Source: Minisyncoccota bacterium (GTDB lineage Bacteria > Patescibacteriota > Minisyncoccia > Phycocordibacterales > UBA2100). From it: a stretch of DNA of 64,000 nt. The notes under the pieces were generated by a model. The model had not been told where the DNA came from. It did not search any database and saw nothing but the letters and a program-made list of their open reading frames with translations. Location: contig OZ253947.1 of the NCBI GenBank assembly GCA_965267345.1, positions 138,814 through 202,813 on the forward strand. Reading direction: 5' to 3'. Made by a program: the position numbers and the translations under genes. This document shows positions 1,238 to 61,904 of the stretch, piece after piece (the stretch's first letter is position 1; each line of letters starts with the position of its first letter).

Positions 1238-2060
1238 AGCGCTGACACCACAACAGGTGCGTGCATTCCGCCATCGTGTATGGCGCTTTTATCGTGAGCA
1301 TGGGCGTCACACGTTACCGTGGCGAAAGACGACGCATCCGTACCGTGTCTTGGTCTCTGAAGTGATGCTGCAGCAAACGCAGGTTGATCGCGTCATCCCC
1401 AAGTACCGTGCCTTTATACGTGCATTTCCAACTGTCGCAGCGCTGGCACGAGCGCCGCTCGCTGATGTGTTGCGGCTCTGGAGTGGTCTTGGCTACAATC
1501 GACGGGCACGTATGTTACACCGTGCAGCACAGGTGGTGTGCCGTGACTATGCGGGGCGCATACCTAAGGACTATGAAGGCCTCCTGCAGTTACCGGGCGT
1601 GGGGTCGTATACCGCAGCGGCGGTCTGCGTGTTTGCCTACAATGCACCGATGACTATGATCGAGACGAACATTCGCAGTGTCTTTTTACACGAGTTTTTC
1701 GCCAAAGCCAGTGCAATTGCCGATCATGATATCGCCCCGCTCATTGCACAAACGCTTCCGCAACGGCGGGCACGAGAGTGGTACGCAGCGCTCATGGACT
1801 ACGGTACGTACATAAAAAAGCACACACCCAATCCAAGTCGCCGGAGTGCGCACCACACACGGCAGCGTCCGTTTCGCGGCTCGCGCCGCGAAGTACGCGG
1901 TGCAGTGGTCCGTGCGCTCCTGCAGGCATCACAGACAGCGAGGCAGCTCGTACGTGACACCGGTTTTCCCGCTGAACGTGTTACCGATGCACTTGCCGGT
2001 CTCGAGAAAGACGGTTTGGTGTATCGCAGCGGTACGCGATGGGCGCTCGTCGCTGATTAA
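1206..2060 (+). CDS. HhH-GPD DNA glycosylase (MutY/Nth-like) lacking the 4Fe-4S Cys cluster; C-terminal winged-helix-like region
   Basis: LPWR..PY..SEVMLQQTQV, the LPGVGSYTAAAV helix-hairpin-helix and an LMDYG catalytic Asp context. No C-x6-C-x2-C-x5-C cluster. The C-terminal 70 aa look wHTH-like. Confidence 0.65.
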   Translation: MMTRQKRARAKALTPQQVRAFRHRVWRFYREHGRHTLPWRKTTHPYRVLVSEVMLQQTQVDRVIPKYRAFIRAFPTVAALARAPLADVLRLWSGLGYNRRARMLHRAAQVVCRDYAGRIPKDYEGLLQLPGVGSYTAAAVCVFAYNAPMTMIETNIRSVFLHEFFAKASAIADHDIAPLIAQTLPQRRAREWYAALMDYGTYIKKHTPNPSRRSAHHTRQRPFRGSRREVRGAVVRALLQASQTARQLVRDTGFPAERVTDALAGLEKDGLVYRSGTRWALVAD

Positions 2061-3907
2061 ACACCGACGATAACGGGAATGACAATCGGATTCTTATGCG
2101 TTCGCTGTACGAGGAATTGCGAAACGACATCAGTGAGTTCATTTTTTACGGCGTCGATATCGGTACGACGTGATCCACGCATGCCATTCTCAACTGTTTT
2201 CTTGATGATTAGTCGCGTTTGTCCTAGCAGCTCTTGCGATTCGCGTAAGTAGATGAAGCCGCGTGAAATAATATCAGGTGATTTGCGCAGTTTGCCGGTG
2301 CGCAGATTTACCGTTGCAACAATGACAAAAATGCCGTCCTGTGCAAGTGTTTGACGATCTTTGATGACCGCTTCCTGCACATCGCGCACGTGCAGTCCTT
2401 CAACAACACGCATGGTCATCGGTGCTTTCTCAAGGAGACGCACCAAGGTTTCTCCCTTGTCGCGAATTTCAACGATCGTACCGTTGTCGGGAATGACGAT
2501 ATCTTCAGGTGCGAGTCCGCACGCTTCTTGTATGAGTGCGCCGTGTCCGCGAAGCATGTAGTGGTAGCCGTGCTGTGGAATAAAGAATTTTGGGCGAATT
2601 TGCTCGTGAATCCACTTTGCCTCTTCAGCATTTCCGTGACCTGAGGCGTGCACGTCACTTGTCTCGTACGTCAGAATATGTGGTCCTTGTCGTGCGATTT
2701 TGTCCTTCAGTGACTGCACTGCTCGTTCGTTGCCGGGAATCACCGATGATGAGAGCACAATGGTGTCTTGCGGTGTGAGCTTTACAAAGCGATGCATTTT
2801 GTTTGCCATGCGCATCAATGCGGCGTAGGCGTCACCTTGAGCGCCGGTGGCGAGAATGATGATTTTGCTTTCAGGATAGTCACTCATTTGTTCAGAAGTA
2901 ATCATCGTTCCTTTCTTTGGCTTGAGCAGTCCGAGCTCCATGGCGATATCGAGATTGTTCTTCATGCTGCGTCCTTCCACGACAACTTTTTTGCCGTTTT
3001 TCTCAGCAATCTCGATAATCTTGATAACGCGCTCTACCTGTGAGGCAAAGGTGCCGATAATCATGCGGTGTTTCGCTTCGGCAATAATTGTCTCAAAGGT
3101 CTCGAAGACGCGGTGTTCGGGGATAGACCATCCCGGACGACCCGTGTTAGTGGAGTCCATGAGCAAACAGAGGACTTTTTCGTCATTGAAGACACTAAAG
3201 TTCTCGATTTCATGCTTATGTACCGCGCCGTCGGTGTGATCGAGTTTGATGTCACCTGTGAATACAACGCTGCCGAATTTAGTGCGGATGATGACGCCCA
3301 TTGAGTCAGGAATGGTGTGGGTCACATTGAAGAAACCGAGCTCAAAACCGCCCACCTTTATTTTGTCACCAGGTTCGACGTCGCGCAGGTCAAGCGCAGG
3401 CAAGTGCGGGAACTCAGTCTGGCGTTTTTTCACCATTACTGACGTGAAGTTGTGTGTATAGATCGGCGGATTACCGATGCGGTCAATGATGTAGGGGATG
3501 CCACCGATGTGATCGAGGTGGCCGTGCGTGAGCACCATACCTTTAATTTTGTGCTTGCGCTCTTCAAGGTACTGCGTGTTCGGCAAGATGTAGTCAACAC
3601 CAGGTGTGTTTTCCTCTTGGAACATGAAACCACAGTCAACGACAATAATTTCATCGTTCAACTCAACGAGACTCATGTTGCGGCCGACCTCTTCCACACC
3701 GCCGAGCGGAATGATGCGGATTGTGTCCGGTGCGAGTTCCGGAATGACATCGTCCTTTTTGCGTGCATGCGGACGATCAAGTGTCAGTGGGCGACGGCGT
3801 ACACCGCGACCAGCGCGCTTACGTTTCGTACCGGCAGTTTTTCGTGCCGTGCCGTTTCGGGTGCCGCTGCGCCCAGCTGTGCGTTTTTTAGGTTGTTCTG
3901 AAGCCAT
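2057..3907 (-). CDS. rnj: Ribonuclease J (metallo-beta-lactamase/beta-CASP RNase) with basic N-terminal tail
   Basis: 616 aa. LTHGHLDHIGG HxHxDH motif and beta-CASP region. About 60 aa of K/R-rich N-terminal extension. Confidence 0.88.
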   Translation of the reverse strand: MASEQPKKRTAGRSGTRNGTARKTAGTKRKRAGRGVRRRPLTLDRPHARKKDDVIPELAPDTIRIIPLGGVEEVGRNMSLVELNDEIIVVDCGFMFQEENTPGVDYILPNTQYLEERKHKIKGMVLTHGHLDHIGGIPYIIDRIGNPPIYTHNFTSVMVKKRQTEFPHLPALDLRDVEPGDKIKVGGFELGFFNVTHTIPDSMGVIIRTKFGSVVFTGDIKLDHTDGAVHKHEIENFSVFNDEKVLCLLMDSTNTGRPGWSIPEHRVFETFETIIAEAKHRMIIGTFASQVERVIKIIEIAEKNGKKVVVEGRSMKNNLDIAMELGLLKPKKGTMITSEQMSDYPESKIIILATGAQGDAYAALMRMANKMHRFVKLTPQDTIVLSSSVIPGNERAVQSLKDKIARQGPHILTYETSDVHASGHGNAEEAKWIHEQIRPKFFIPQHGYHYMLRGHGALIQEACGLAPEDIVIPDNGTIVEIRDKGETLVRLLEKAPMTMRVVEGLHVRDVQEAVIKDRQTLAQDGIFVIVATVNLRTGKLRKSPDIISRGFIYLRESQELLGQTRLIIKKTVENGMRGSRRTDIDAVKNELTDVVSQFLVQRTHKNPIVIPVIVGV

Positions 3908-3950: not shown

Positions 3951-5717
3951 TTACTTAAAGAAGTGCCACACACGCTCGGTCTGTGTATGCCATGTATGCA
4001 CATCAGCGAAGCGTTCACTCGGTGTGGTGACGAGTCCGGCGTCAATGCCGTGCATGCGTGTGGGAACAAGGTACAAAAAGTCGGGTGAGTAGAGGAATAT
4101 CGCGGGAACGTCCGCACGGATCTCTTCTTCAAATGCGCGATACAGTTCGTCACGCTCATCGGTATCGGACAGCGTGCGCGCGTCTGCTAGAAGATCGTCA
4201 GCGGTGGTATTAGTATACAGTGCAATGTTAAGCCCCGGATCATCCCGCTGTGATGAGTGCCAGAAGGCAAACAGGTCCAGCTCGCGACCAATGACCTCAC
4301 CGAACAGCAGCGCCTCGTAGTCGCGTGGACGAATGATGCTCTGGTTCAGCTCACCTGTTTCAAAAATACTGACGCGCACCGGAATGCCGGCTTCACGCCA
4401 CATCTGTGTGGCGAGTTGTGCCGCCGCTTTCAGTTCAGGCGTGTTCGCGGTGGCAATTGAGAATGACAGAATCTGTTCGCCGTCAGTCCACTGGTTCAGG
4501 TCAGTATCAAACTCCCAACCGGCATCTTCAAGGATAGCGCGTGCCTGCGCTTGGCGTTCTTCTGTCGTACGCGTGTCTGTGGGCGCTTCATACTGTCCCT
4601 CAACTGTTTCGGGCGGGAGGGGTGAGTCAATCACCGTGCCGTAGCTGTTGAGTACCTCGTCAATGATTGCCTGCTTATCAATGAGCACAGTGAGTGCCTC
4701 ACGTACGGCACGGTCGGTAAAGATGTGGTTTTGGTTCTGATTGAAAAATACGGCAAAAATACGCGGGAAGGTTGCGCGTATCAGGCGACTATCATCGTCA
4801 ACGATGGTGTTCATTGATGCTGACGAGAGTGCGCTCAAGCTCTCGACGGCGCCCTGTGTGTAGGCGCGCACGAGGTCCTCCTCATTTGCATAGAAGTGAA
4901 TAAAGAGGGTATCGATATACGGCTGCCCGAGGGTGTACTGGCGATACGCAGATAGTTCGTATCGCGTTGGAATGCCTGCACCGTTGTAGGTGATGTCGTG
5001 GAGGGTAAACGGGCCCGCACCAATAGGTTGTGTGTTAAATGTGCTAAAGGGAAATTCCTGTGATGAGACGTTAATCCATATGTGGCGCGGCAAGATGCCC
5101 ATTGTCGTATTTTCGAGGAACGGCGCATAGGGTTGATCGAGCACGAAGCGTACGGTGCGATCGTCAACGCGTTCCACTGTGACGCCGTCCCAGTCGGCAC
5201 GACGAGGGCTCTTGAGCGCATTATCTTGTGCCGCTTCAACAGTAAAGATAATGTCGTCGGCAGTGACGGCAACACCATCGTGGAATCGGGCGTCATCGCG
5301 CAGTACGAAGGTATACTCGGTACCGTCTTCTGAGATGGTGTATCGTTCAGCCAGATCGGGTACTAACTCACCGCTCGCGGTTGGGCGCGTCAGTCCGGCA
5401 TAGATGAGTGCTGAAAGATCGCGGTCGGTATCTGAAATGGCAAGGAGCGGGTTAATGAAGCGCGGTGCACCGATGACGCCTTCGTGGAGTGTTCCGCCAC
5501 GTACCGGCACTTGTGTCGTCGCATACGTATTGAGCGATACAAATACCGCGAAGCTACTGACACTAACCGCTGCAACCAGCAGCCAAAACAGCACTTTCTC
5601 TGCAGGCGAGAGTGTAGCGACAATGCGATCGAGTACGTGCGCCTTTGGCAACATGCGCCACTGGCGTACACGAGCGAACAAACGCAGACCTGATTGTGGG
5701 TTCTCGTGATGAGTCAT
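3951..5717 (-). CDS. ABC transporter substrate-binding protein, family 5 (peptide/nickel-type), membrane-anchored
   Basis: Long ORF 3951..5777. N-terminal TM helix, then family-5 solute-binding-protein-like sequence. Start uncertain: GTG 5777, ATG 5732, ATG 5717 or ATG 5654. Confidence 0.7.
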   Translation of the reverse strand: MTHHENPQSGLRLFARVRQWRMLPKAHVLDRIVATLSPAEKVLFWLLVAAVSVSSFAVFVSLNTYATTQVPVRGGTLHEGVIGAPRFINPLLAISDTDRDLSALIYAGLTRPTASGELVPDLAERYTISEDGTEYTFVLRDDARFHDGVAVTADDIIFTVEAAQDNALKSPRRADWDGVTVERVDDRTVRFVLDQPYAPFLENTTMGILPRHIWINVSSQEFPFSTFNTQPIGAGPFTLHDITYNGAGIPTRYELSAYRQYTLGQPYIDTLFIHFYANEEDLVRAYTQGAVESLSALSSASMNTIVDDDSRLIRATFPRIFAVFFNQNQNHIFTDRAVREALTVLIDKQAIIDEVLNSYGTVIDSPLPPETVEGQYEAPTDTRTTEERQAQARAILEDAGWEFDTDLNQWTDGEQILSFSIATANTPELKAAAQLATQMWREAGIPVRVSIFETGELNQSIIRPRDYEALLFGEVIGRELDLFAFWHSSQRDDPGLNIALYTNTTADDLLADARTLSDTDERDELYRAFEEEIRADVPAIFLYSPDFLYLVPTRMHGIDAGLVTTPSERFADVHTWHTQTERVWHFFK

Positions 5718-21337: not shown

Positions 21338-22393
21338 TTAGTAGGCGTGCCCGCCAACGGTAAACGCGCCGGTTACCGTGTTGTTGTATTCACTTTGCTC
21401 GCGAATGAAGTTGCGTGGATCGGCGACAACCGAGAAGTACTGTGTACCAGCACGAATTTGATCAAAGGCGATACGGATTTCAACACGAGCACCGGGGAGT
21501 AGCGACGTCTGTGCTTCTGAGAAGAGTGGGTAGCCCCCTTGAATCGGGAGTTGCGCGTTGAAGTACCATGGGCCGGTTGCCTTCGTCCCGCGGTTGGTTA
21601 CTGCAAAGACAAACGCACCGCGCTGATTTGGCTGGACGGTTGTTGCGGGACGGTAGATACCGTAGCCGTCGACAAACCCAACAGAAACGAGTGATACTGC
21701 CAAGTCGGGCGTGCCGTTTGGATCAGAGTAACCCGTGTACTGCGCAGTGTACGATTGCTGTGTGCTATTCGTGGTGTTTTGTGTCGCGTTCTGGCGTGAT
21801 GGAGTGATCGTGAGACCGTCAGGTGTGCTGGTGGTACCTGTGGTGGCATCGTCAGTGCTGCTGTCCGTAGTGGTGGTCGGTGCGGTGTTATCGGTGGCAA
21901 CGCTACCGGCTGCTGCTGCCTGTACGGTAATGGTGTGGGTGTCACGAATGCTCTCACCTGCGTCGTCGGTGAGTGTAATGGCAAACGGCACCGTAAGCGT
22001 TTCGCTGCCGGCGTCAACGAGCACTGGGGTGACCTGCAACTCAGTCGCATCTTCGGCAAGTGTATGCGCGAGATTACACGGCACCGGCTCGCCGGCAATT
22101 TCAAAGTAGAAGCCGTCCTGACATGCGTATGAAAATGACAACACACCTTCTGAGGTAGTGCGCTCCCACGTCACCGCAAGCGGTTCACCTGAGGTGGCAG
22201 TATCCGCTGCAGTAGCCACAACAATCGTTTCTGCCGCTGCGTTACCGCCTTGCGGCGTATCGGCATCACTAAAGAGTCGTGGAATGTATGAAATGACCTG
22301 AATGGCGCTCCAGACACCGATAATGAGGAGGATAATAAAACCGCCGATGGCGATAATGTTTTTAAACGATACGTCAGTTTTTCCGTTTGTCAT
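21338..22393 (-). CDS. Membrane-anchored surface protein with Thr/Ser-rich linker and C-terminal CARDB-like domain
   Basis: N-terminal TM helix, about 60 aa T/S/D-rich low-complexity linker, and C-terminal DLAVSLVS..FVFAVTNRGTKATGPWYFNA..PGARVEIRIAFD (CARDB-like beta-sandwich). ATG at 22393 preferred over TTG at 22405. Confidence 0.5.
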   Translation of the reverse strand: MTNGKTDVSFKNIIAIGGFIILLIIGVWSAIQVISYIPRLFSDADTPQGGNAAAETIVVATAADTATSGEPLAVTWERTTSEGVLSFSYACQDGFYFEIAGEPVPCNLAHTLAEDATELQVTPVLVDAGSETLTVPFAITLTDDAGESIRDTHTITVQAAAAGSVATDNTAPTTTTDSSTDDATTGTTSTPDGLTITPSRQNATQNTTNSTQQSYTAQYTGYSDPNGTPDLAVSLVSVGFVDGYGIYRPATTVQPNQRGAFVFAVTNRGTKATGPWYFNAQLPIQGGYPLFSEAQTSLLPGARVEIRIAFDQIRAGTQYFSVVADPRNFIREQSEYNNTVTGAFTVGGHAY

Positions 22394-22500
22394 ATGGGGT
22401 AACAAAGTAAGTAAAGTCGATCAATGTGCCACTAGTATGGCACAGTACCGTGGGCGACACACCACCGGTACGCTCCGTAAACGGTACCATAGCATACAGC

Positions 22501-22529
22501 TTGACACATTGCAATATAGTACGTATAGT
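22501..22529 (+). promoter_or_regulatory. Consensus sigma70-type promoter upstream of the sortase gene
   Basis: TTGACA, a 17 nt spacer, then TATAGT. The -10 ends about 9 nt before ATG 22539, so a leaderless or near-leaderless transcript is likely. Confidence 0.6.
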
Positions 22530-22538
22530 ATTAATTCT

Positions 22539-23237
22539 ATGACGCAACAGAAGCGTATTTCAATTGCGCACATTGCTGAATCAGTATTCCAGACCGAAGT
22601 GCTTGTCGGGCTCTTTCTTGCGTGGTTCATCCTCGTGGGGACTGGGGCAAGTATTGCCATTGTCATGACCAAGTACACCGAGCATGTGTACGCTGAGCAA
22701 CTTGCACAGCTGCCTGAAGACGAGCAACTCCCTGAGGCAACAAATGTTGCTGAAAGTGCGCAGCGGGACACCGGCGCAGCTGAGAGTGCTGTACCCATGG
22801 CATTTCCAGAACGCCTCGTTATCGACACACTCGACATCAGCTTGCCGGTGAGCAACCCGACAACACGCGACATTGCGGCGCTCGACGAAGAGCTCAAAAA
22901 GGCTGCCGTGCGTTATCCTGACTCGGGTATTCTTGGCGAAGACAATGCAAATACCCTTATTTTCGGCCATAGTAGCCGTCTACCATTGGTGCGCAACCAG
23001 CTCTACAAAGCTTTTAACGATATTGAAACCCTAAATGTGGGTGTACGTATTGAGGTTGTTGCAACAAATGGCTCTGTATACGTCTACCACGTATCTCGTG
23101 TGTACCGCGCCAGCGCTGAAGATGACAGCATTGCCATCACTACAGACGGCCACATGCTCACATTGCTCACGTGTGACTCATTTGGACAGCGCACAGATCG
23201 TTGGGTTGTCGAAGCTCGGTTTGTCGGCATTGAATAG
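22539..23237 (+). CDS. Sortase-family transpeptidase
   Basis: N-terminal TM anchor, TLIFGHSS (catalytic His) and LTLLTCD (TLxTC catalytic Cys motif), followed by a conserved Arg region. Confidence 0.7.
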   Translation: MTQQKRISIAHIAESVFQTEVLVGLFLAWFILVGTGASIAIVMTKYTEHVYAEQLAQLPEDEQLPEATNVAESAQRDTGAAESAVPMAFPERLVIDTLDISLPVSNPTTRDIAALDEELKKAAVRYPDSGILGEDNANTLIFGHSSRLPLVRNQLYKAFNDIETLNVGVRIEVVATNGSVYVYHVSRVYRASAEDDSIAITTDGHMLTLLTCDSFGQRTDRWVVEARFVGIE

Positions 23238-23302
23238 GGAATTGACCGCGGAACCACGCCGTGCTTTGCTACAGCTGGACAGTTCTGCTGGAGGAGCAAA
23301 TT

Positions 23303-23476
23303 ATGCGGACACTTGTCGTCGTGTGTGCGGCTCTGGCCCTCGCCGGTTGCACACTATCTGGATTCGGTGGAAGTTCACTGCGAACGGAGGCAGTGCAAAA
23401 GGTATTTCCGTCGGCGCATGAGTGCATGCACCGTGGGGAACCACATCTGTGCGTCAGTGACAATCAGCGAATTTAG
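23303..23476 (+). CDS. Small putative lipoprotein with CxH..HxC motif
   Basis: MRTLVVVCAALALAGC lipobox. Mature peptide about 40 aa with HECMHRGEPHLC. Strong SD (GGAGGAG) 8 nt upstream. Terminator hairpin follows. Confidence 0.45.
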   Translation: MRTLVVVCAALALAGCTLSGFGGSSLRTEAVQKVFPSAHECMHRGEPHLCVSDNQRI

Positions 23477-23595
23477 CGAAAAACGGCTCAACACAGCAAA
23501 AACAGGGCGCTTCGGCGCCCTGTTATGCTATTGACATATTGTATAAAAATGGTATTCTTCCGTCCAGATCAACGTGAACGAAAGGAGGAAATCCA

Positions 23596-23850
23596 ATGTT
23601 CACAGTGGTTCGTACGGCCTGCGTACTTGGTGCGCTTGTGGTCGCGGGTTGCGCGGCGCAGGGACGCCATGTGAGTGGGTCGCCAGTGCCGCCGTCGCCG
23701 AGCGACCTCTTACGGCATTGCGGGGACGTGGAGGTTGTCGTTGACAACCGAGTACCACGACGTCCGCGTGGTCCGTGGTTGCGTCTCGTGCAGGGAACAC
23801 GAGTGTATCCTGACTTCTGCCGCGTGGAAAAGAGCTACGTGTGGCGATGA
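23596..23850 (+). CDS. Small putative lipoprotein, Pro/Arg-rich with 2 mature Cys
   Basis: LGALVVAGC lipobox. AAAGGAGG SD 7 nt upstream. Own terminator. Confidence 0.5.
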   Translation: MFTVVRTACVLGALVVAGCAAQGRHVSGSPVPPSPSDLLRHCGDVEVVVDNRVPRRPRGPWLRLVQGTRVYPDFCRVEKSYVWR

Positions 23851-24144
23851 GGAAAGCACACAAGCAAGACAAAAAGCGGGGCGCCCACACGGTGCCCCGC
23901 TTAGTTTTTGGTACAGGATAGTACTTGACACAATAAGTTATATATGCCACTATATCGCCACGACGCGTTCTCTCTTTGATGCCAAACATACGCTGTTTTT
24001 ACGGCGTATGTTTGGCTTCGTAGAGGCCGCAGAAGCTCATTGTGTTCATTGAAACGCTCCTCATTGTGGGGAGCTGGTGGTCGGCGCCATGGCACACATC
24101 ACCAGCTCCCCGTGATGGAGGGAGTACAAAAGGGAGATTCAAAG

Positions 24145-24522
24145 ATGTCTGAAAAGACCAAAGGTGTTTTCTGGGGTTTCATCGTATGTGCAGCACTCGT
24201 TTTCGTGCTGGGGGGCTTCTGGTTTTCCTTCACGAACGACAAGGGTGTGCGCGATGGGGTGCGCCAGGAGGTATCGCTTGAAGGCGATCGGCATTCGGCA
24301 CCCACTTCCTCAGATCAGAACTCTGTTCGTTCGGAATCGGACGATCCGGTATCCAACGCGGATGTTCTTGCGGCATGGGAGAGGGCGATCAACGATACGC
24401 CTCCTCCCGCAGGAGCTGATGGCTGGAAACGGATCAAGCCGAGGGCAACGGGCGAGAAGGGCTGCACGCCTGGGGAAACGCGGGTCAACCCGAATACCGG
24501 CAGACTTCAGGGCTGCTTGTAG
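24145..24522 (+). CDS. Small membrane-anchored secreted protein with C-terminal Cys-x18-Cys loop
   Basis: N-terminal signal anchor (GVFWGFIVCAALVFVLGGFWF). GCTPGETRVNPNTGRLQGCL at the C-terminus. GGGAG SD. Strong terminator (13 bp stem plus T9) at about 24527-24583. Confidence 0.45.
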   Translation: MSEKTKGVFWGFIVCAALVFVLGGFWFSFTNDKGVRDGVRQEVSLEGDRHSAPTSSDQNSVRSESDDPVSNADVLAAWERAINDTPPPAGADGWKRIKPRATGEKGCTPGETRVNPNTGRLQGCL

Positions 24523-24526
24523 ACAT

Positions 24527-24583
24527 CGTAGCGGAATGTGTTTGATACACATTCCGCTACCCCCCTTTTTTTAAAATTTGAGC
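24527..24583 (+). terminator. Strong rho-independent terminator after the small Cys-loop protein gene
   Basis: 13 bp stem (tagcggaatgtgt/acacattccgcta), followed by ccccccttttttttt. Confidence 0.7.
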
Positions 24584-24678
24584 TTAAAGAGATTGTGGAG
24601 AGCTCCAGCAGCGTAATCTTTGTTATTTTGTTGCAGGTCTTCACAAGAGACCTCATGTCAACAACGAAAGGAGGTGAC

Positions 24679-25191
24679 ATGAAGACGTTCTTTGTAGTAG
24701 CAGTCTTGGCGGTTGCATGTACGTTGTTTTTCTACGATGACGCACATGCAGGATATCGCTGCGACGGCGGCACCCGCTGCCTCGAACATCTGAAGGATGA
24801 TGGTCCCCGCGCCTACAGCGGGCCGCTTACGTGCATTGATTTCCGGCAACGGGGCACGGAGCGTGAGGTCTACCTTCGGTTTTTCGATCGCGACGGGCGT
24901 GTGTTGTTCGCCAGCGGTGACCCGCAAGGTGCAACCACGAATCTGGTGAGGGGAACGAGCTTGGAAGGAGTTGGTTTCGAAACCTACTCTGAGGGGCGCA
25001 TCGTGTGGGATCCGAAGAAACGGAAATACCCGCGCATTTGTACCGGACCGTGGCGTTGGAAAATGGCCTATTCCTTTGAACTCTGCAACGATGTGCAGAC
25101 GTACAAAGGTCGCCGCCTTCCTGGCAGGAGCCTATATCAACGTCTGGTGTCCGGTGACTTCCCGCAGCCAGTACTTCTGTGGAAGCACTGA
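24679..25191 (+). CDS. Secreted cysteine-rich protein (6 Cys in mature chain)
   Basis: Signal peptide MKTFFVVAVLAVA..AHA. Cys in YRCDGGTRC, LTCIDF, RICTGP and ELCNDV. AAAGGAGG SD 7 nt upstream. Terminator hairpin downstream. Confidence 0.5.
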   Translation: MKTFFVVAVLAVACTLFFYDDAHAGYRCDGGTRCLEHLKDDGPRAYSGPLTCIDFRQRGTEREVYLRFFDRDGRVLFASGDPQGATTNLVRGTSLEGVGFETYSEGRIVWDPKKRKYPRICTGPWRWKMAYSFELCNDVQTYKGRRLPGRSLYQRLVSGDFPQPVLLWKH

Positions 25192-25249
25192 AGAATCGTC
25201 AAGGCCCAAGTTCCCGACAGAGCATTCTTCAAAACGAATAGCTCTGTCG

Positions 25250-25279
25250 GGCACTTGACTACTTTTAATATATATTGTA
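25250..25279 (+). promoter_or_regulatory. Sigma70-type promoter upstream of the tandem-repeat surface protein
   Basis: TTGACT, a 17 nt spacer, then TATATT. Confidence 0.5.
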
Positions 25280-25349: not shown

Positions 25350-26600
25350 ATGGAAAACGTGATTTCAAAAATAACTTTCATATCATTGGCCGTACTATTC
25401 GGTGTGGTGTTTGGGCTTGGAAGTCAATTGGTTTCTCCGCATCTCGCGCAGGCGTATAATACCGGCGAATGGTACGACATCGCGGAACCTGCATACGGCT
25501 ACGATGATGGCTGGGGGTATACTAACGAAGGATGCTGCGATACTAACGAATGGTACGACATCGCGGAACCAACTTTCGACACAAGCGAATGGTACGACAT
25601 CGCGGAGCCCGCATACGAATATAATACCGGCGAATGGTACGACATCGCGGAACCAACTTTCGACACAAGCGAATGGTACGATATCGCAGAGCCAATACAC
25701 GATGTGTATTCATACGACTATGGCTACGATGTATACGACTACGACGTATATGACACCTACTCATACGACTACTACACCGCACCGTCACGTCACTACGTGT
25801 CACCGACGGTACATTACGGTGTGACATCAAGTTACGCAGCAGCGCCACGATACGAGGCGCGCAGCAACACACAGATCAGTAACACCAACACAACGGTAGA
25901 CAACAGCGTGGTGCAGATCGATAACAGTGTTGTCGACAACAGTGTCGTTGATAACAGCATCAACAACTCATTTAACTCAGGTGGCTACATCGGTGTTGCA
26001 AATCCGCAGCCGATCGTTGTACAGCCGTACTACTACCCAACGTACTACCCTGAGACACTGACGTGTTCACTGACACTGACGCAGAACAGCTACGGAAACG
26101 CCGTGCTGCACTGGACGACACAGGGCGCAACCCGCGCAACCATCAACAATGGTGTTGGTAGTGTGTCTGTCGGTTCAGGTTCACGTGCTGTCGGGCCGGC
26201 ATACACGCCATACACCATGACAGTGTGGGGTACACGCGGTAACACCACGACGTGTGCCGCATCAGCAAACTACACGCCGCACCGACCAAACGTCACGGTT
26301 GATATTGCACACGTGCCATACACTGGTGTTGATCCACTTCCATACACACTCGGGCTTATTGCCACCGCTCTTGCCGCCGGTGCTGCACTCTTTGTCTTCC
26401 GCCGTCGTCTTACCCCTGTCTTTGGTGCATTTGCTCCCGCATTTGCCGGATTTACGCAGCATCAGGACGAAGTGGCTGCTGACACGTATCAGTTTGACGG
26501 TGACGAGGACGACGCAGATAGCGACGATCGCGAGGCAGTTGATACGCTTGTTGTTGAAAAGGGTGAGGGAGGACCACAATTCTCGTTCATTCGTCGCTAA
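25350..26600 (+). CDS. Tandem-repeat surface protein (EWYDIAEP repeats, Tyr/Asp-rich) with sorting-signal-like C-terminal region
   Basis: Signal peptide, then 5 or more EWYDIAEP(A/T)(Y/F) repeats, YDY low complexity and DNSVV repeats. C-terminus has VPYTG..PLPYTLG, a hydrophobic helix, RRR, and a 60 aa acidic tail. Confidence 0.55.
   Translation: MENVISKITFISLAVLFGVVFGLGSQLVSPHLAQAYNTGEWYDIAEPAYGYDDGWGYTNEGCCDTNEWYDIAEPTFDTSEWYDIAEPAYEYNTGEWYDIAEPTFDTSEWYDIAEPIHDVYSYDYGYDVYDYDVYDTYSYDYYTAPSRHYVSPTVHYGVTSSYAAAPRYEARSNTQISNTNTTVDNSVVQIDNSVVDNSVVDNSINNSFNSGGYIGVANPQPIVVQPYYYPTYYPETLTCSLTLTQNSYGNAVLHWTTQGATRATINNGVGSVSVGSGSRAVGPAYTPYTMTVWGTRGNTTTCAASANYTPHRPNVTVDIAHVPYTGVDPLPYTLGLIATALAAGAALFVFRRRLTPVFGAFAPAFAGFTQHQDEVAADTYQFDGDEDDADSDDREAVDTLVVEKGEGGPQFSFIRR
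25455..25700 (+). repeat. Imperfect tandem DNA repeats (units about 39-45 bp nested in an 83 bp higher-order unit) encoding EWYDIAEP repeats
   Basis: gaatggtacgacatcgcggaacc recurs at about 25467, 25548, 25587, 25632 and 25671. tataataccggcgaatggtacgacatcgcggaacc is duplicated at about 25454 and 25618. Confidence 0.85.
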
Positions 26601-26688: not shown

Positions 26689-27150
26689 ATGACGTACACA
26701 AACACATTGCGTTGGAGTATCGCCGCACTGTTCATCGGTGGCGCTGCTCTGTTCGCGTTTCCGTACAGCGCCCACGCACTCTCATACATTGATTGGAATT
26801 ACCCGTATACACGGTCATCGAACCAGTACGTCGTGACGTCGGCAACGTACGGCAATCAGTACAACAACTGGAACGCCAATCCGAATTGGAACTGGACGCA
26901 CCGGAACTGGAACCGCAACACAGCAAACGGCTACACCGTGACATTTCCGCAATCAACGCACCATAACTACACACCGGCAACGTATACGTACTACGATTAC
27001 TACCAGCCGCAATGGTACTACACGACGCCCGTAACGTACCGCTATGATGATTGGTACTATCCAACAAATACGTGCTGGAACTGCACATCATGGCCGTACA
27101 ACAATGGGTGGGGTATTAACGTCGGTGGCTACTACTCAAATTCGTGGTAG
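26689..27150 (+). CDS. Secreted Trp/Tyr/Asn-rich low-complexity protein
   Basis: Signal peptide (..AALFAFPYSAHA). Mature chain is dominated by W, Y, N and T (NWNANPNWNWTHRNWNRN, YYDYYQPQWYY). Confidence 0.45.
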   Translation: MTYTNTLRWSIAALFIGGAALFAFPYSAHALSYIDWNYPYTRSSNQYVVTSATYGNQYNNWNANPNWNWTHRNWNRNTANGYTVTFPQSTHHNYTPATYTYYDYYQPQWYYTTPVTYRYDDWYYPTNTCWNCTSWPYNNGWGINVGGYYSNSW

Positions 27151-27218: not shown

Positions 27219-27659
27219 ATGAACGTACAGAGTACGGGTATAGCGCGATTTACCGCAACGGCATTTGTTGTCGTCATTGCAGTGGTAGGTTTCGCGATAC
27301 CAAAAAGTGCAGACGCCGCTTATCAATATGGCATCGGGGCGTCGATTTGTGGGAATGATCCTTTCATGTATTGTGGCAACCTTGGATACAAGGAGCGCAG
27401 CAATGGTCAGTGGCAAGTAACCGCCGGCGGAACAGTTGGGTTCGGAAACACATACAGCACGTACCGCCCAGCATCACGTCCGACGTACTACACGACCAGT
27501 CATCGCAGTGCACCGAGTGTGTACACGGTCGGGAGCGCATACTCACGCCAGAAGCGTCCCGTATACGTTGGTTCGCGTACGCAGTCAACGTACGTTGTCA
27601 CATCAAACAATGCTCGTGCACCGCGCACGTCATACCCAAACTGGTTGGTCATGTACTAA
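27219..27659 (+). CDS. Secreted Tyr/Thr/Ser-rich protein
   Basis: Signal peptide (..FAIPKSADA). Mature chain rich in Y, T, S and R with short repeats (STYRPASRPTYYT..). Confidence 0.45.
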   Translation: MNVQSTGIARFTATAFVVVIAVVGFAIPKSADAAYQYGIGASICGNDPFMYCGNLGYKERSNGQWQVTAGGTVGFGNTYSTYRPASRPTYYTTSHRSAPSVYTVGSAYSRQKRPVYVGSRTQSTYVVTSNNARAPRTSYPNWLVMY

Positions 27660-33390: not shown

Positions 33391-33645
33391 GTGGCTGATA
33401 AAGGAAATGACGCAGAAACCGTTCTTACGGCTGAACGCCTTCGCAAGGTGCTAGACCGCGGCGTTCCTGAGCTGATTGCGAGTCAGTGCGTATGTTGCCC
33501 TTTTTGCCGCCATAAATCGGCGGGTCAGGTATGCAACATGTGCGAGGAGGATGATCATTTCGAGCCTCTTTCGGGACTTGATCCCGACAGCGATGAGTTC
33601 AAGAATCGCATGGATGCACACCTCAAAAAGGTGCATAGCCAATAA
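33391..33645 (+). CDS. Small Cys-cluster (zinc-ribbon-like) protein upstream of rpmF
   Basis: GTG start 5 nt after AAGGAGG. CVCCPFC..x9..CNMC. The position upstream of L32 is where DUF177/YceD-type Cys4 proteins usually sit. Confidence 0.4.
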   Translation: MADKGNDAETVLTAERLRKVLDRGVPELIASQCVCCPFCRHKSAGQVCNMCEEDDHFEPLSGLDPDSDEFKNRMDAHLKKVHSQ

Positions 33646-34137: not shown

Positions 34138-35043
34138 ATGTCAAATCGGCACACCGCACGTTCGATTGTTCTTCAGACACTCTTCGAGCTTGACTCGGAG
34201 GGTGGCGATGTTTCTCGTGCCGATGACACACTCGTAGCCAATGCGCAGGAGTTTGCGCCAAATGCACAATCACTGTTTCCGTTCATGAAGCAGCTGATGG
34301 AGACGGCGCTGGCAAAGCGTGGCGAAATCGACACGATTATCACCAAGGCCGCTCCTGAGTGGCCGCTTGAGCGTATTGCGGTCATGGATCGTAATATTCT
34401 GCGTATTGGTCTCACCGAGCTCCTTTTTGGTGACCGCGAGCAGGTACCGCCTAAGGTTGCCATTAACGAGGCGATTGAGTTGGCAAAAGAGTTCGGTGGT
34501 GAATCAAGCGGACGCTTCGTCAACGGCGTACTCGGTGCCGTCTACAAGGAAATCGGTGAGCCGGGAAAAGAAGAGACAGGAAAGAAAAAACTTCTTGAAG
34601 ATGAGACGCTGGCAACCGAAGAGGTCATTGGCGCCGTTGTCTATGCAGAGGAAGACGGCGAACTCTACGTTGCCCTCGTGCACGATGTATTTGGCCACTG
34701 GACGCTACCGAAAGGTAAGCTCAAAGACAGTGAAGACCCACACGACGGGGTGGTGCGGAAAATTAAAGAAGAGATCGGCCTTGCGGTCACCGTTGAGCAT
34801 GAGTTGGGCGAGAATACCTACATTGCCAGTAATCCTGACGAGGGGCGCAAAAAACGCCACGGACGCTATTACCTCGCGAAAGCGCCATTTAATGAGCTAC
34901 AACTCAAAGGCGAGGGCGGACTTGATGACGCACAGTGGTTTAAATTAGCTAACATTGTCGAACTCAACTTCTACGACGATATTTTGCCCGTCATTACGCG
35001 AGCAGTTAACGTACTCGCGCAACCACGCACACCACAGGAGTAA
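34138..35043 (+). CDS. nusB: NusB-like antitermination domain fused to a C-terminal NUDIX hydrolase domain
   Basis: Residues 1 to about 140 are NusB-like (ARSIVLQTLFELD.., RIAVMDRNILRIGLTELLF, INEAIELAKEFGGE). Residues from about 160 carry a NUDIX box (GKLKDSEDPHDGVVRKIKEEIGL). Confidence 0.7.
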   Translation: MSNRHTARSIVLQTLFELDSEGGDVSRADDTLVANAQEFAPNAQSLFPFMKQLMETALAKRGEIDTIITKAAPEWPLERIAVMDRNILRIGLTELLFGDREQVPPKVAINEAIELAKEFGGESSGRFVNGVLGAVYKEIGEPGKEETGKKKLLEDETLATEEVIGAVVYAEEDGELYVALVHDVFGHWTLPKGKLKDSEDPHDGVVRKIKEEIGLAVTVEHELGENTYIASNPDEGRKKRHGRYYLAKAPFNELQLKGEGGLDDAQWFKLANIVELNFYDDILPVITRAVNVLAQPRTPQE

Positions 35044-35083
35044 TTATTCGTGTATACCAACACACGACACGACAACGAAACCT

Positions 35084-35773
35084 ATGATTGACTTTACCCC
35101 ATTTGAAACACGCATTGGCGTGACGTTTCAGGACAAGACGCTGTTACAGACAGCGTTTACGCACCGTTCATACGTCAACGAAAATCGTGCAACAGTGAAG
35201 GAGCACAACGAGCGCCTTGAGTTTCTCGGTGACGCAGTGCTCGAGCTGGTCATTACTGACTTTCTCTATAAGAAATACCCCGAGCGCCCCGAGGGTGAAC
35301 TCACGGCGTTCCGTGCCGCGCTGGTAAATACCCAGAGTATTTCTGAAGCGGCGAGCGAGCTGGGTATGAATGACTATCTGCTCCTCTCACGTGGTGAGGC
35401 AAAAGACACGGGACGCGCGCGGCAGTACATACTCGCAAATACATTTGAGGCACTGATCGGCGCGCTGTACTTAGATCAGGGTTACGATGCTGCACACGCA
35501 TTCATTCGCAGCACGCTGTTTGATAAAATCGAGACTATTGTTGCCGAGCGACTCTGGCAAGATGCAAAAAGCTATTTTCAGGAAAAAGCGCAAGAAACGT
35601 ATTCCGCAACTCCGTCGTACGAACTCGTGGATGAAGTTGGGCCCGATCACGATAAGAAGTTCGTTGCCGCAGCGCTGATTAATGATGAACGCATCGCCAC
35701 CGGCGAAGGGCGCTCAAAACAAGAGGCTGAGCAAGAAGCGGCGCGTAAGGCACTCGAAGTTAAGGGGTGGTAG
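35084..35773 (+). CDS. rnc: Ribonuclease III
   Basis: HRSY..ERLEFLGDAVLELV signature and a C-terminal dsRBD. Confidence 0.9.
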   Translation: MIDFTPFETRIGVTFQDKTLLQTAFTHRSYVNENRATVKEHNERLEFLGDAVLELVITDFLYKKYPERPEGELTAFRAALVNTQSISEAASELGMNDYLLLSRGEAKDTGRARQYILANTFEALIGALYLDQGYDAAHAFIRSTLFDKIETIVAERLWQDAKSYFQEKAQETYSATPSYELVDEVGPDHDKKFVAAALINDERIATGEGRSKQEAEQEAARKALEVKGW

Positions 35774-61193: not shown

Positions 61194-61904
61194 TTACTCG
61201 CCACCAATTTCACCAGCAAGGAGCTGATCAACGATCTGGCGCATCGTCTCAATAGACTGGGCTCCCTCAAGTGTGTACTGCTCACCGTTGTAGAGAATGA
61301 TGTTGTGTGGAGTGCCACGGCCACCGGCAGCGACAACCTCATCGTAGTCTTCTTGTACCCGTGGTGCCATGTCACCGCTTTCAAGACAGGTGGTGAATGC
61401 GTCGACATCAAGACCGGCGAATTCGGCAATTTCAGGGAGCTGTGAATCAGCTAGGCCGTCGTTTGATGGCGTAATGTCGTAGAGGCGGTTGGTGTATGCC
61501 CAGAATCCGTCGTTGCCGCCAAGCTCAGCGGCACACTCAATTGCTTCTGCCTCACGCTGTGCTTTTGCGTGGAGCTGCGGGATGGGGAAGTGACGGTAGA
61601 CCCATGCCAGTTCGCTGTCGTCGTACTCAGTGATGAGCTGATTCATCGTTTCGTGGAAGTTCTTGCAGAACGGACACTCCGTATCTGAGAACTCAACGAT
61701 AACAACTTCGGCATCAGGGTTTCCCTGAATGTGGTCATCAGTTTGCACACCGCGGATGTCTTGTGCGGGTTCTTGTTGCACGTCGTTTGGAGTACCTGTA
61801 CCACCGGCACCGGTGCCGAGTGCAAAATATAATGCTGCCGCAATGAGTGCACCTGCTGCCACAATGGCAACGGCGATTGCAACATTTCCTTTGTGTTGTG
61901 TCAT
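61194..61904 (-). CDS. DsbA-family thiol:disulfide oxidoreductase, membrane-anchored
   Basis: N-terminal TM helix and a CPFC active site in a thioredoxin fold. Confidence 0.8.
   Translation of the reverse strand: MTQHKGNVAIAVAIVAAGALIAAALYFALGTGAGGTGTPNDVQQEPAQDIRGVQTDDHIQGNPDAEVVIVEFSDTECPFCKNFHETMNQLITEYDDSELAWVYRHFPIPQLHAKAQREAEAIECAAELGGNDGFWAYTNRLYDITPSNDGLADSQLPEIAEFAGLDVDAFTTCLESGDMAPRVQEDYDEVVAAGGRGTPHNIILYNGEQYTLEGAQSIETMRQIVDQLLAGEIGGE

Follow-up and report, generated by a model that had tools for sequence, protein, structure and literature searches.

Small Shine-Dalgarno-led genes for predicted exported, cysteine-containing proteins in the variable segment of a patescibacterial sortase locus

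Four consecutive small genes on the plus strand of a 64-kb stretch of Minisyncoccota bacterium DNA (contig OZ253947.1, 644 kb long; the window, whose positions are used throughout) fill the variable part of a conserved sortase locus. Each is an ATG-initiated open reading frame (ORF), of 57, 84, 125 and 170 aa respectively (ORF1 to ORF4), as an earlier reading of the letters alone (the sequence-only reading) had listed them, and BLASTP detected no similarity among the four products, in agreement with their description as unrelated. Their portrayal as a stand-alone cassette did not hold up. On balance, we place the segment at the rapidly evolving centre of a conserved cell-surface locus linked to a sortase in a Paceibacteria genome, and we lean towards the view that its products would be disulfide-stabilised residents of the envelope, quick to diversify, in the company of a repeat protein displayed by the sortase. 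ORF3 and ORF4 represent two new, narrowly distributed protein families. New here as well is the combination of sortase-associated, predicted exported proteins that lack sorting signals with Shine-Dalgarno (SD) sites, in an otherwise leaderless genome, and with structured leaders that are conserved.

A variable segment beside the sortase gene

The locus in the window comprises gyrB, a CARDB protein, the sortase, the small, predicted exported proteins, a surface repeat protein with a VPYTG motif, Tyr-rich proteins and a threonyl-tRNA synthetase (ThrRS). We compared it with 98 related loci (L-numbered). Relatives keep the order gyrB, CARDB protein (minus strand), sortase (plus strand) and then a ThrRS-type synthetase and a large ORF (both minus strand), and differ from one another in the sortase-to-synthetase interval of 4-4.5 kb. 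ORFs were scored if they were 40-220 aa long, followed an SD and encoded a hydrophobic N-terminal segment together with two or more Cys beyond residue 25. In non-redundant relatives, 27 such ORFs occur in the 126 kb that lie within 3 kb downstream of a sortase (0.21 per kb) and 12 in the 1,474 kb elsewhere in the related loci (0.008 per kb), an approximately 26-fold enrichment near the sortase. ORF1-4 are the only ORFs of the window that satisfy all of these criteria. Near relatives (sortase at least 50% identical) have two to four such small genes nearly always, and SD-led lipoprotein-like ORFs downstream of the sortase were also found in L040 and L041. A more distant relative has an insertion of two small ORFs immediately behind the sortase (L095 724-1397, L096 6597-7204) that, judged by eye, look like a nucleotidyltransferase/HEPN-type (MNT/HepT) toxin-antitoxin pair.

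The four genes and their predicted products

ORF3 (24145-24522) and ORF4 (24679-25191) are real genes, since synonymous sites (dS) are saturated in both and more than half of the residues identical among relatives (31 of 56 for ORF3) are encoded by different codons, that is, conservation is at the protein level. The 125-aa ORF3 product has an N-terminal transmembrane (TM) anchor, which bears out the single signal anchor of the sequence-only reading, then a linker that varies and, at the C-terminus, a conserved domain of ~55 aa common to all relatives (AAWxRA...TPPPAG...WK...ATGExGCTPGETRVNPxTGRLQGC), at the end of which lies a predicted disulfide loop, GCTPGETRVNPNTGRLQGC. Its Cys (Cys107 and Cys124) are spaced C-x16-C rather than by the 18 residues first reported. 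Besides L087:5521-5862, three relatives (including P0004 and P0005) were found in a collection of 5.8 billion proteins. Homologs lie directly behind the sortase in L081 and L082 and in the same interval in L087-90; in L083, whose contig is short and truncated upstream so that no sortase is visible, the neighbours of the homolog are a YkuD (L,D-transpeptidase-type) gene and a gene related to that of the repeat protein. In an AlphaFold2 (AF2) model, of low confidence, the TM helix leads through a disordered linker to a short helix, with a beta-hairpin lying within the Cys107-Cys124 loop. An N-terminal TM helix and a conserved C-terminal Cys-x16-Cys beta-hairpin are shared with type IV pilins, but the family has a long disordered linker and no adjacent pilus assembly genes, and we rejected a pilin assignment because the prepilin cleavage motif (Gly-1/Glu+5) is absent from the N-termini of ORF3, P0004 and L087:5521. 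The 'ATGE' of ORF3 was likewise rejected as a sortase motif, as no TM segment follows it and it is lost in L087.

The 170-aa ORF4 product begins with an n-h-c signal peptide that can be read directly from its sequence (MK, a 17-residue hydrophobic stretch and predicted cleavage between AHA and G). P0006 and P0009 have hydrophobic N-termini that align with it, and the cleavable signal peptide proposed earlier is thus conserved in homologs. Five conserved Cys (C28, C34, C52, C121 and C136) would remain in the mature protein, the sixth of the six first counted lying inside the signal peptide. A word-seeded search for ORF4 homologs found nothing; an exhaustive HMMER search yielded three true relatives (P0006, P0007 and P0009, 35-44% identity) and two further matches that are repetitive junk. 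Homologs occupy one slot, immediately upstream of the gene for the VPYTG repeat protein, in L084-L090. In L002, L081, L096 and L009 this slot holds a shorter secreted family with the same Cys pattern (C-x2-5-C ... LxC(I/V)xFxQ ... CxG-x12-CN), which hhalign aligned to ORF4 with 95% probability (E = 1.7e-8), the signal peptides adding to the score. AF2 predicted a beta-rich core for ORF4, with pLDDT values of 70-90 over residues 50-80 and 105-170 (mean 63), for which no fold match was found in the PDB. The homolog searches that the sequence-only reading had called for thus revealed small lineage-restricted families at this position for ORF3 and ORF4, and none for ORF1 and ORF2.

ORF1 (23303-23476, 57 aa) and ORF2 (23596-23850, 84 aa) are lipoprotein-like orphans. 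Both comply with a PROSITE-type lipobox rule ([LVI][ASTVI][GAS]C with the Cys at 15-35, K/R in the first seven residues and an uncharged h-region), ORF1 with LAGC (Cys16) and ORF2 with VAGC (Cys19), so that the two lipoboxes noticed earlier stand; the predicted mature parts are 42 and 66 aa. Like lipoproteins processed by Lgt and LspA (PROSITE PS51257-type), the two start with a basic n-region and continue through a hydrophobic h-region to L/V-A-G-C at positions 13-16 and 16-19, but unlike these their mature parts are tiny and without homologs. ORF2 has two further Cys, C42-x32-C75. A proposed homology of ORF2 to the TM-anchored two-Cys proteins that directly follow the sortase in relatives was dropped, as those proteins align unconvincingly among themselves. 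In ORF1 the Cys motif is C-x-H-x4-H-x-C, the CxH..HxC of the earlier description. Residues 39-50 of ORF1 (listed at window 23341-23452) read HECMH-x4-HLC, a 12-residue stretch that holds two Cys, three His and a Met and could, instead of forming a disulfide, bind a metal (Zn/Cu) in a small site.

The main residual doubt is whether ORF1 and/or ORF2 are translated at all. Were ORF3 and ORF4 the only genes here, ORF1 and/or ORF2 would be chance ORFs in a long 3' untranslated region of the sortase mRNA or in an intergenic regulatory region. That no homolog of either was found, in the 98 loci or in the 5.8-billion-protein collection (the latter searched with the two sequences concatenated as one query), favours this alternative. 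So does the annotation record for ORF1, which is not annotated in any form, neither its 57-aa nor its 71-aa version being in the public protein collection; ORF2 is annotated in NCBI/ENA, as a singleton cluster. The codon scores of the two (-0.24 and -0.21) are equalled by 31-33% of spurious shadow ORFs, although in each case the ORF's own frame scores highest of the six; codon usage is in fact uninformative on whether they are coding, because the verified ORF3 and ORF4 are atypical too. Among the 2,941 candidate starts in the window, 27 fit the lipobox rule and 57 have an SD, so that about 0.5 with both would be expected by chance. The only starts that combine the two in 64 kb are nevertheless those of ORF1 and ORF2, which are adjacent, intergenic and ATG-initiated, with the ATG at ideal spacing from the SD and a canonical lipobox behind a true hydrophobic h-region. 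Both ORFs stop 25-30 nt short of a strong hairpin, ORF2 has its own extended -10 promoter, and relatives that lack ORF1 and ORF2 show no comparable 260-nt gap behind the sortase. We therefore rate chance ORFs as rather improbable, and regard ORF2 as very probably, and ORF1 as probably, a real gene.

Translation signals, transcription units and structured leaders

The sequence-only reading had placed GGAGG 7-8 nt before each of the four starts. This is correct for ORF1 (SD GGAGGAG, 23290-23296, with 8 nt between GGAGG and ATG) and ORF2 (AAGGAGG, 23582-23588, then 7 nt), but not for ORF3, whose SD is the non-canonical GGGAG (24132-24136, then 8 nt, with GGAGGGAG 23 nt upstream), nor for ORF4, where AAGGAGGTGA (24668-24677) ends 1 nt before the ATG and GGAGG is followed by 4 nt. 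To put these sites in context, start signals were counted for 56 ORFs of at least 90 aa and in 123 interior control windows. A -10 box (TAnnnT, at least 5/6 matches) 5-11 nt before the 5' start codon was present in 21 of 56 ORFs and in 1 of 123 controls (p = 2e-11), whereas SD-like motifs were not enriched (7/56 gene starts versus 13/123 controls). Four SD-led genes in a row stand out precisely because the SD is not a general feature of gene starts here. The contrast drawn earlier between these genes and SD-less core genes behind a -10 box is thus real, but to ascribe the latter arrangement to 'most' core genes was an overstatement, as many genes are internal to operons. Apart from ORF1-4, and perhaps L31, the window has no intergenic strong SD other than those (AAGGAGG in both cases) of two small ORFs at 33391-33645 (plus strand, 84 aa) and 58068-57766 (minus strand, 100 aa), each without a Pfam domain and with atypical codon usage. 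The codon scores of these six strong-SD genes range from -0.24 to +0.04, compared to 0.45 +/- 0.15 for core genes, and SD-led genes appear to be a class of small accessory genes in this genome. Relatives show the same division: their small exported genes after the sortase carry AAGGAG- or GGGAG-type SDs, while the sortase, the VPYTG protein, the kin of a 146-aa protein (27219-27659 in the window) and gyrB sit directly behind a -10 box. The genome has the 'group C' leaderless organisation described with GeneMarkS-2 (PMC6028130), with a Pribnow box 5-11 nt before many starts and few SD genes, but differs in that the SD-led set is concentrated in one surface-protein locus, is kept across relatives and comes with structured leaders.

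SD sites together with atypical codons might instead mark recently acquired foreign DNA, such as a small genomic island or a phage remnant, and it is in keeping with this that all six strong-SD genes are small, lack a Pfam domain and score so far from the core. Yet the GC content of the segment (53-55%) is that of its surroundings, no tRNA, integrase, repeat boundary or mobile-element gene is present at it, no relatives were found in viral contigs, and several genomes have kept, by vertical descent and at one position, the ORF3 and ORF4 families along with the SD sites and leader hairpins of these genes. Recent acquisition thus seems very unlikely, and the segment is better taken as a resident, fast-changing part of the sortase locus.

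Independent expression of the four genes, as first proposed, is plausible for two of them: ORF2 and ORF3 each have a sigma 70-like promoter, a leader and a hairpin, consistent with monocistronic units. The ORF2 promoter (23531-23558) is TTGACA-16-(TG)TATTCT, and that of ORF3 consists of TTGACA at 23925-23930, a 17-nt spacer and CACTAT at 23948-23953, in the same position as in relatives. For ORF1 and ORF4 monocistronic expression is not evident. ORF1 starts 65 nt after the sortase stop with no evident promoter of its own, and is for this reason probably co-transcribed as the second gene of the sortase transcript; upstream of ORF4 the sole promoter-like element is a -10-like TAAAAT (24573-24578). 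Strong hairpins follow all four genes (-24 to -32 kcal/mol, z -4.5 to -8.7), as the sequence-only reading had it, but only that after ORF2 (23874-23909) is a textbook intrinsic terminator with an adjacent U-tract, a 12-bp GC-rich stem being followed by UUAGUUUUU (z -4.5). The hairpin after ORF1 (23501-23524, CAGGGCGC-UUCG-GCGCCCUG; -25.2 kcal/mol, z -6.3) has a weak U-tract and also reads as a terminator for the minus strand; that after ORF3 (24528-24573; -24 kcal/mol, z -8.7) has a 14-bp stem, then CCCCCC and only then UUUUUUU; and that after ORF4 (25207-25257; -31.9 kcal/mol, z -6.6) has no U-tract and overlaps the -35 element of the next promoter (TTGACT, 25255).

The ORF3 leader (~23960-24144, ~190 nt) is strongly structured (-91 kcal/mol, z -6.1). 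Its core is a 12-bp helix, GGGGAGCUGGUG (24068-24079) with CACCAGCUCCCC (24100-24111), whose 5' arm is SD-like and 3' arm anti-SD-like. The helix recurs in five other genomes, before the first small TM-anchored genes after the sortase, and the element as aligned spans 24058-24147 in the window, 9333-9421 in L002, 1325-1412 in L081, 875-963 in L084, 2080-2186 in L086 and both 4723-4813 and 5428-5523 in L087. In this alignment 94% of the cells are paired, 6 of the 12 pairs have compensatory changes and none of 500 shuffles was as good, with slid controls pairing at 38-61%. Upstream of the helix is a conserved motif, AGCUCUUUU(A)GYUCAUUG (the AGCUCUUUUAGCUCAUU motif). Matches to a covariance model of the element (R1) were confined to a small clade, always on the plus strand and before an SD and ATG. 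A second hairpin, distinct from the first, precedes ORF4 (~24593-24647) and its counterparts (L084 ~1535-1590, L086 ~2660-2700 and the equivalents in L087, L002 and L081; alignment A10), 25-35 nt upstream of the SD in six genomes. Of its 23 pairs, 17 have compensatory changes, pairing reaches 92% and again 0/500 shuffles did as well; many pairs are G-U, which argues for an RNA rather than a DNA structure. Neither leader matched Rfam 15, in which matches to the region were far below gathering scores (E >= 0.78); the only Rfam match in the window was a tRNA.

These leader hairpins probably set mRNA stability or translation level. Sequestration of the SD by the conserved ORF3 helix, which we considered, found no support, as the SD is unpaired in the minimum-free-energy fold; a translational switch is therefore no more likely than a 5' structure that stabilises the mRNA or a site for RNase III. 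The window itself encodes RNase J (2057-3907, minus strand) and RNase III (34955-35773, plus strand), an observation relevant to whether leaders may act by protection against a 5' exonuclease or as sites of double-stranded RNA processing. In Gram-positive bacteria, 5' mRNA stabilisers such as ompA/aprE-type 5' hairpins and the cryIIIA STAB-SD protect against RNase J. The leaders described here have in common with these a long, stable hairpin near the 5' end followed by a strong SD or SD-like sequence, as well as the presence of RNase J and RNase III in the window, but have no sequence relationship to them and no Rfam family, and translational control or RNase III processing would be equally possible.

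Neighbouring genes and a possible role at the envelope

The sortase gene (22539-23237, plus strand) has a Pfam Sortase match at 5.8e-18, and no NCBIfam sortase class reaches its cut-off. Its longest ORF (22302-23237) would encode 311 aa, but given homologs of 229-244 aa and a perfect TTGACA-17-TATAGT-9-ATG, the leaderless ATG at 22539 is the likely start; the public protein collection does not contain the resulting 232-aa product, which suggests that a different start was probably chosen in the deposited annotation. Downstream of ORF4, a 416-aa surface repeat protein (25350-26600, plus strand) has a signal peptide, WYDIAEP repeats (six-fold) and low-complexity sequence rich in Tyr/Asn. Its VPYTG precedes a TM segment and RRR, after which comes a conserved acidic tail, cytoplasmic by prediction, of ~65 aa with FSFIRR at its end. 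Homologs in L081 and L087 have QVPYTG, relatives keep the motif as QVPYTG ... KLSFVQR, and matches to NCBIfam sorting-signal models were weak and sub-threshold. This protein is the likely sortase substrate of the locus, with an atypically long tail. It is followed by two leaderless genes for predicted secreted proteins, one Tyr/Asn/Trp-rich (26689-27150, 153 aa) and the 146-aa one mentioned above; relatives have at these positions Tyr/Gln-rich proteins and a well-conserved protein (MTLSKKGVPALIVTCAFAMF...), from which the window versions are too diverged for tblastn. Elsewhere in the window lies the membrane DsbA that the sequence-only reading had placed at 61.2 kb (61194-61904, minus strand), which we confirmed as a DsbA/MdbA-like thiol-disulfide oxidoreductase with an N-terminal TM segment, a CPFC motif and Pfam matches to Thioredoxin_4 (4.5e-21, 76 bits, cut-off 23) and DSBA (8.7e-15, 55 bits, cut-off 25.6). 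It is a candidate oxidase for exported Cys proteins; MdbA-like oxidoreductases, VKOR and sortase are reported to be enriched in the candidate phyla radiation (CPR) and tied to the folding of secreted surface proteins (PMC6744442).

The rest of the window is mainly housekeeping: RNase J, GroES/EL, a release factor, S2, EF-Ts, PheRS, gyrB, the ThrRS-type synthetase, RNase HII, NusB, RNase III, SMC, RNase R, TrmD, a UvrD-type helicase and others. The best matches of gyrB (70-82% identical) assign the window to Patescibacteria/Paceibacteria (metagenome-assembled genomes, MAGs, of the uncultured 'Patescibacteria group' and of Kaiser-, Adler- and Paceibacterota). Many of its closest relatives (L001, L005, L006 and others) are deposited as 'uncultured Candidatus Saccharibacteria' yet group with Paceibacteria/Parcubacteria MAGs, and these labels look unreliable.

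As we envisage it, the products of ORF1-4 would be exported by the Sec pathway as envelope proteins: ORF1 and ORF2 as two lipid-anchored mini-proteins, ORF3 as an N-terminally anchored protein with a small disulfide-closed C-terminal knob and ORF4 as a secreted, beta-rich five-Cys protein. The membrane DsbA/MdbA-like enzyme would oxidise them outside the cell, and they would stay at or on the envelope as accessories or partners of the surface structure that the sortase may build from the VPYTG protein. Expression would be from leadered mRNAs with a strong SD, unlike that of the leaderless core genes, and the SD of ORF3- and ORF4-type genes would come after a long, conserved stem-loop in the 5' leader.

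The sequence-only reading had named effectors, bacteriocin-like factors or surface ligands as possible roles. As effectors or bacteriocin-like factors, the proteins would be diffusible weapons or signals aimed at host or competitors. That the proteins are small, Cys-containing, predicted to be exported and fast-evolving would suit such a role, as would the episymbiotic life of CPR bacteria (PMC6744442) and the cleavable signal peptide of ORF4, which has no anchor. However, no double-glycine leader was found, nor any processing, transporter/export, peptidase or immunity gene between the sortase and ThrRS; none of the four products matched Pfam, NCBIfam, PHROGs or PADLOC, and PDB profile searches with the ORF3 and ORF4 families gave nothing at E < 0.1. 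Envelope assembly is suggested instead by the constant location of the genes, next to a sortase of housekeeping type and a surface repeat protein, and three of the four proteins are predicted to be membrane-tethered, two as lipoproteins and one by a signal anchor, which argues for envelope residents over diffusible effectors. A weapon or signal is, in our judgement, an unlikely role. What remains of the earlier proposal is that these are predicted exported, Cys-containing proteins with their own translation signals, without the effector framing.

The envelope-resident reading has its own difficulties, beyond the orphan status of ORF1 and ORF2. Among the more distant relatives, roughly one in two lacks such small genes downstream of the sortase. 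Scans of ~44 of the 57 window ORFs with Pfam found neither lgt nor lspA. The number of mature Cys in ORF4 is odd, and the AF2 models are of low to moderate confidence and without a fold match. ORF1-4 also lack an LPXTG-like sorting signal and have hydrophilic C-termini, so that gene position is what links any of them to the sortase. The closest known counterparts are Gram-positive gene clusters for sortase-linked surface proteins and pili with MdbA-dependent disulfide formation, as in Actinomyces oris and Corynebacterium diphtheriae (cited in PMC6744442). Shared with them are a sortase beside genes for predicted Sec-exported, Cys-containing proteins, a membrane DsbA/MdbA-like enzyme in the same genome and a neighbour with an LPXTG-like VPYTG, a TM segment and a basic stretch. 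In contrast, ORF1-4 have no sorting signal or recognisable pilin domain, the sortase falls below every NCBIfam class cut-off, the putative substrate has a long acidic tail after the TM segment and the small genes turn over fast between relatives.

A bolder and, taken as a whole, doubtful proposition is that the clade may keep beside its sortase a dedicated, hypervariable set of small disulfide-bonded envelope proteins as a specificity layer on the surface of the episymbiont, for host or partner recognition, with members like ORF1 and ORF2 arising de novo. The set would be expressed via a lineage-specific post-transcriptional system of conserved leader hairpins and SD or SD-like boxes, an undescribed class of cis-regulatory RNA in an otherwise leaderless genome. 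As the evidence stands, ORF1-4 encode uncharacterised, predicted exported proteins, and the impact for now is modest. Members of the CPR/Patescibacteria live attached to other cells, and most of their surface proteins are 'hypotheticals' without annotation, for which this locus offers a handle: positionally fixed, rapidly diversifying small Cys proteins, predicted to be exported, beside a sortase, and a sharp division between core genes, which are leaderless, and surface genes, which have an SD and conserved structured leaders. Leaders with a regulatory function would count among the few cis-acting RNA elements known for the phylum, and small proteins that partnered the repeat protein displayed by the sortase would be candidate components of host recognition.

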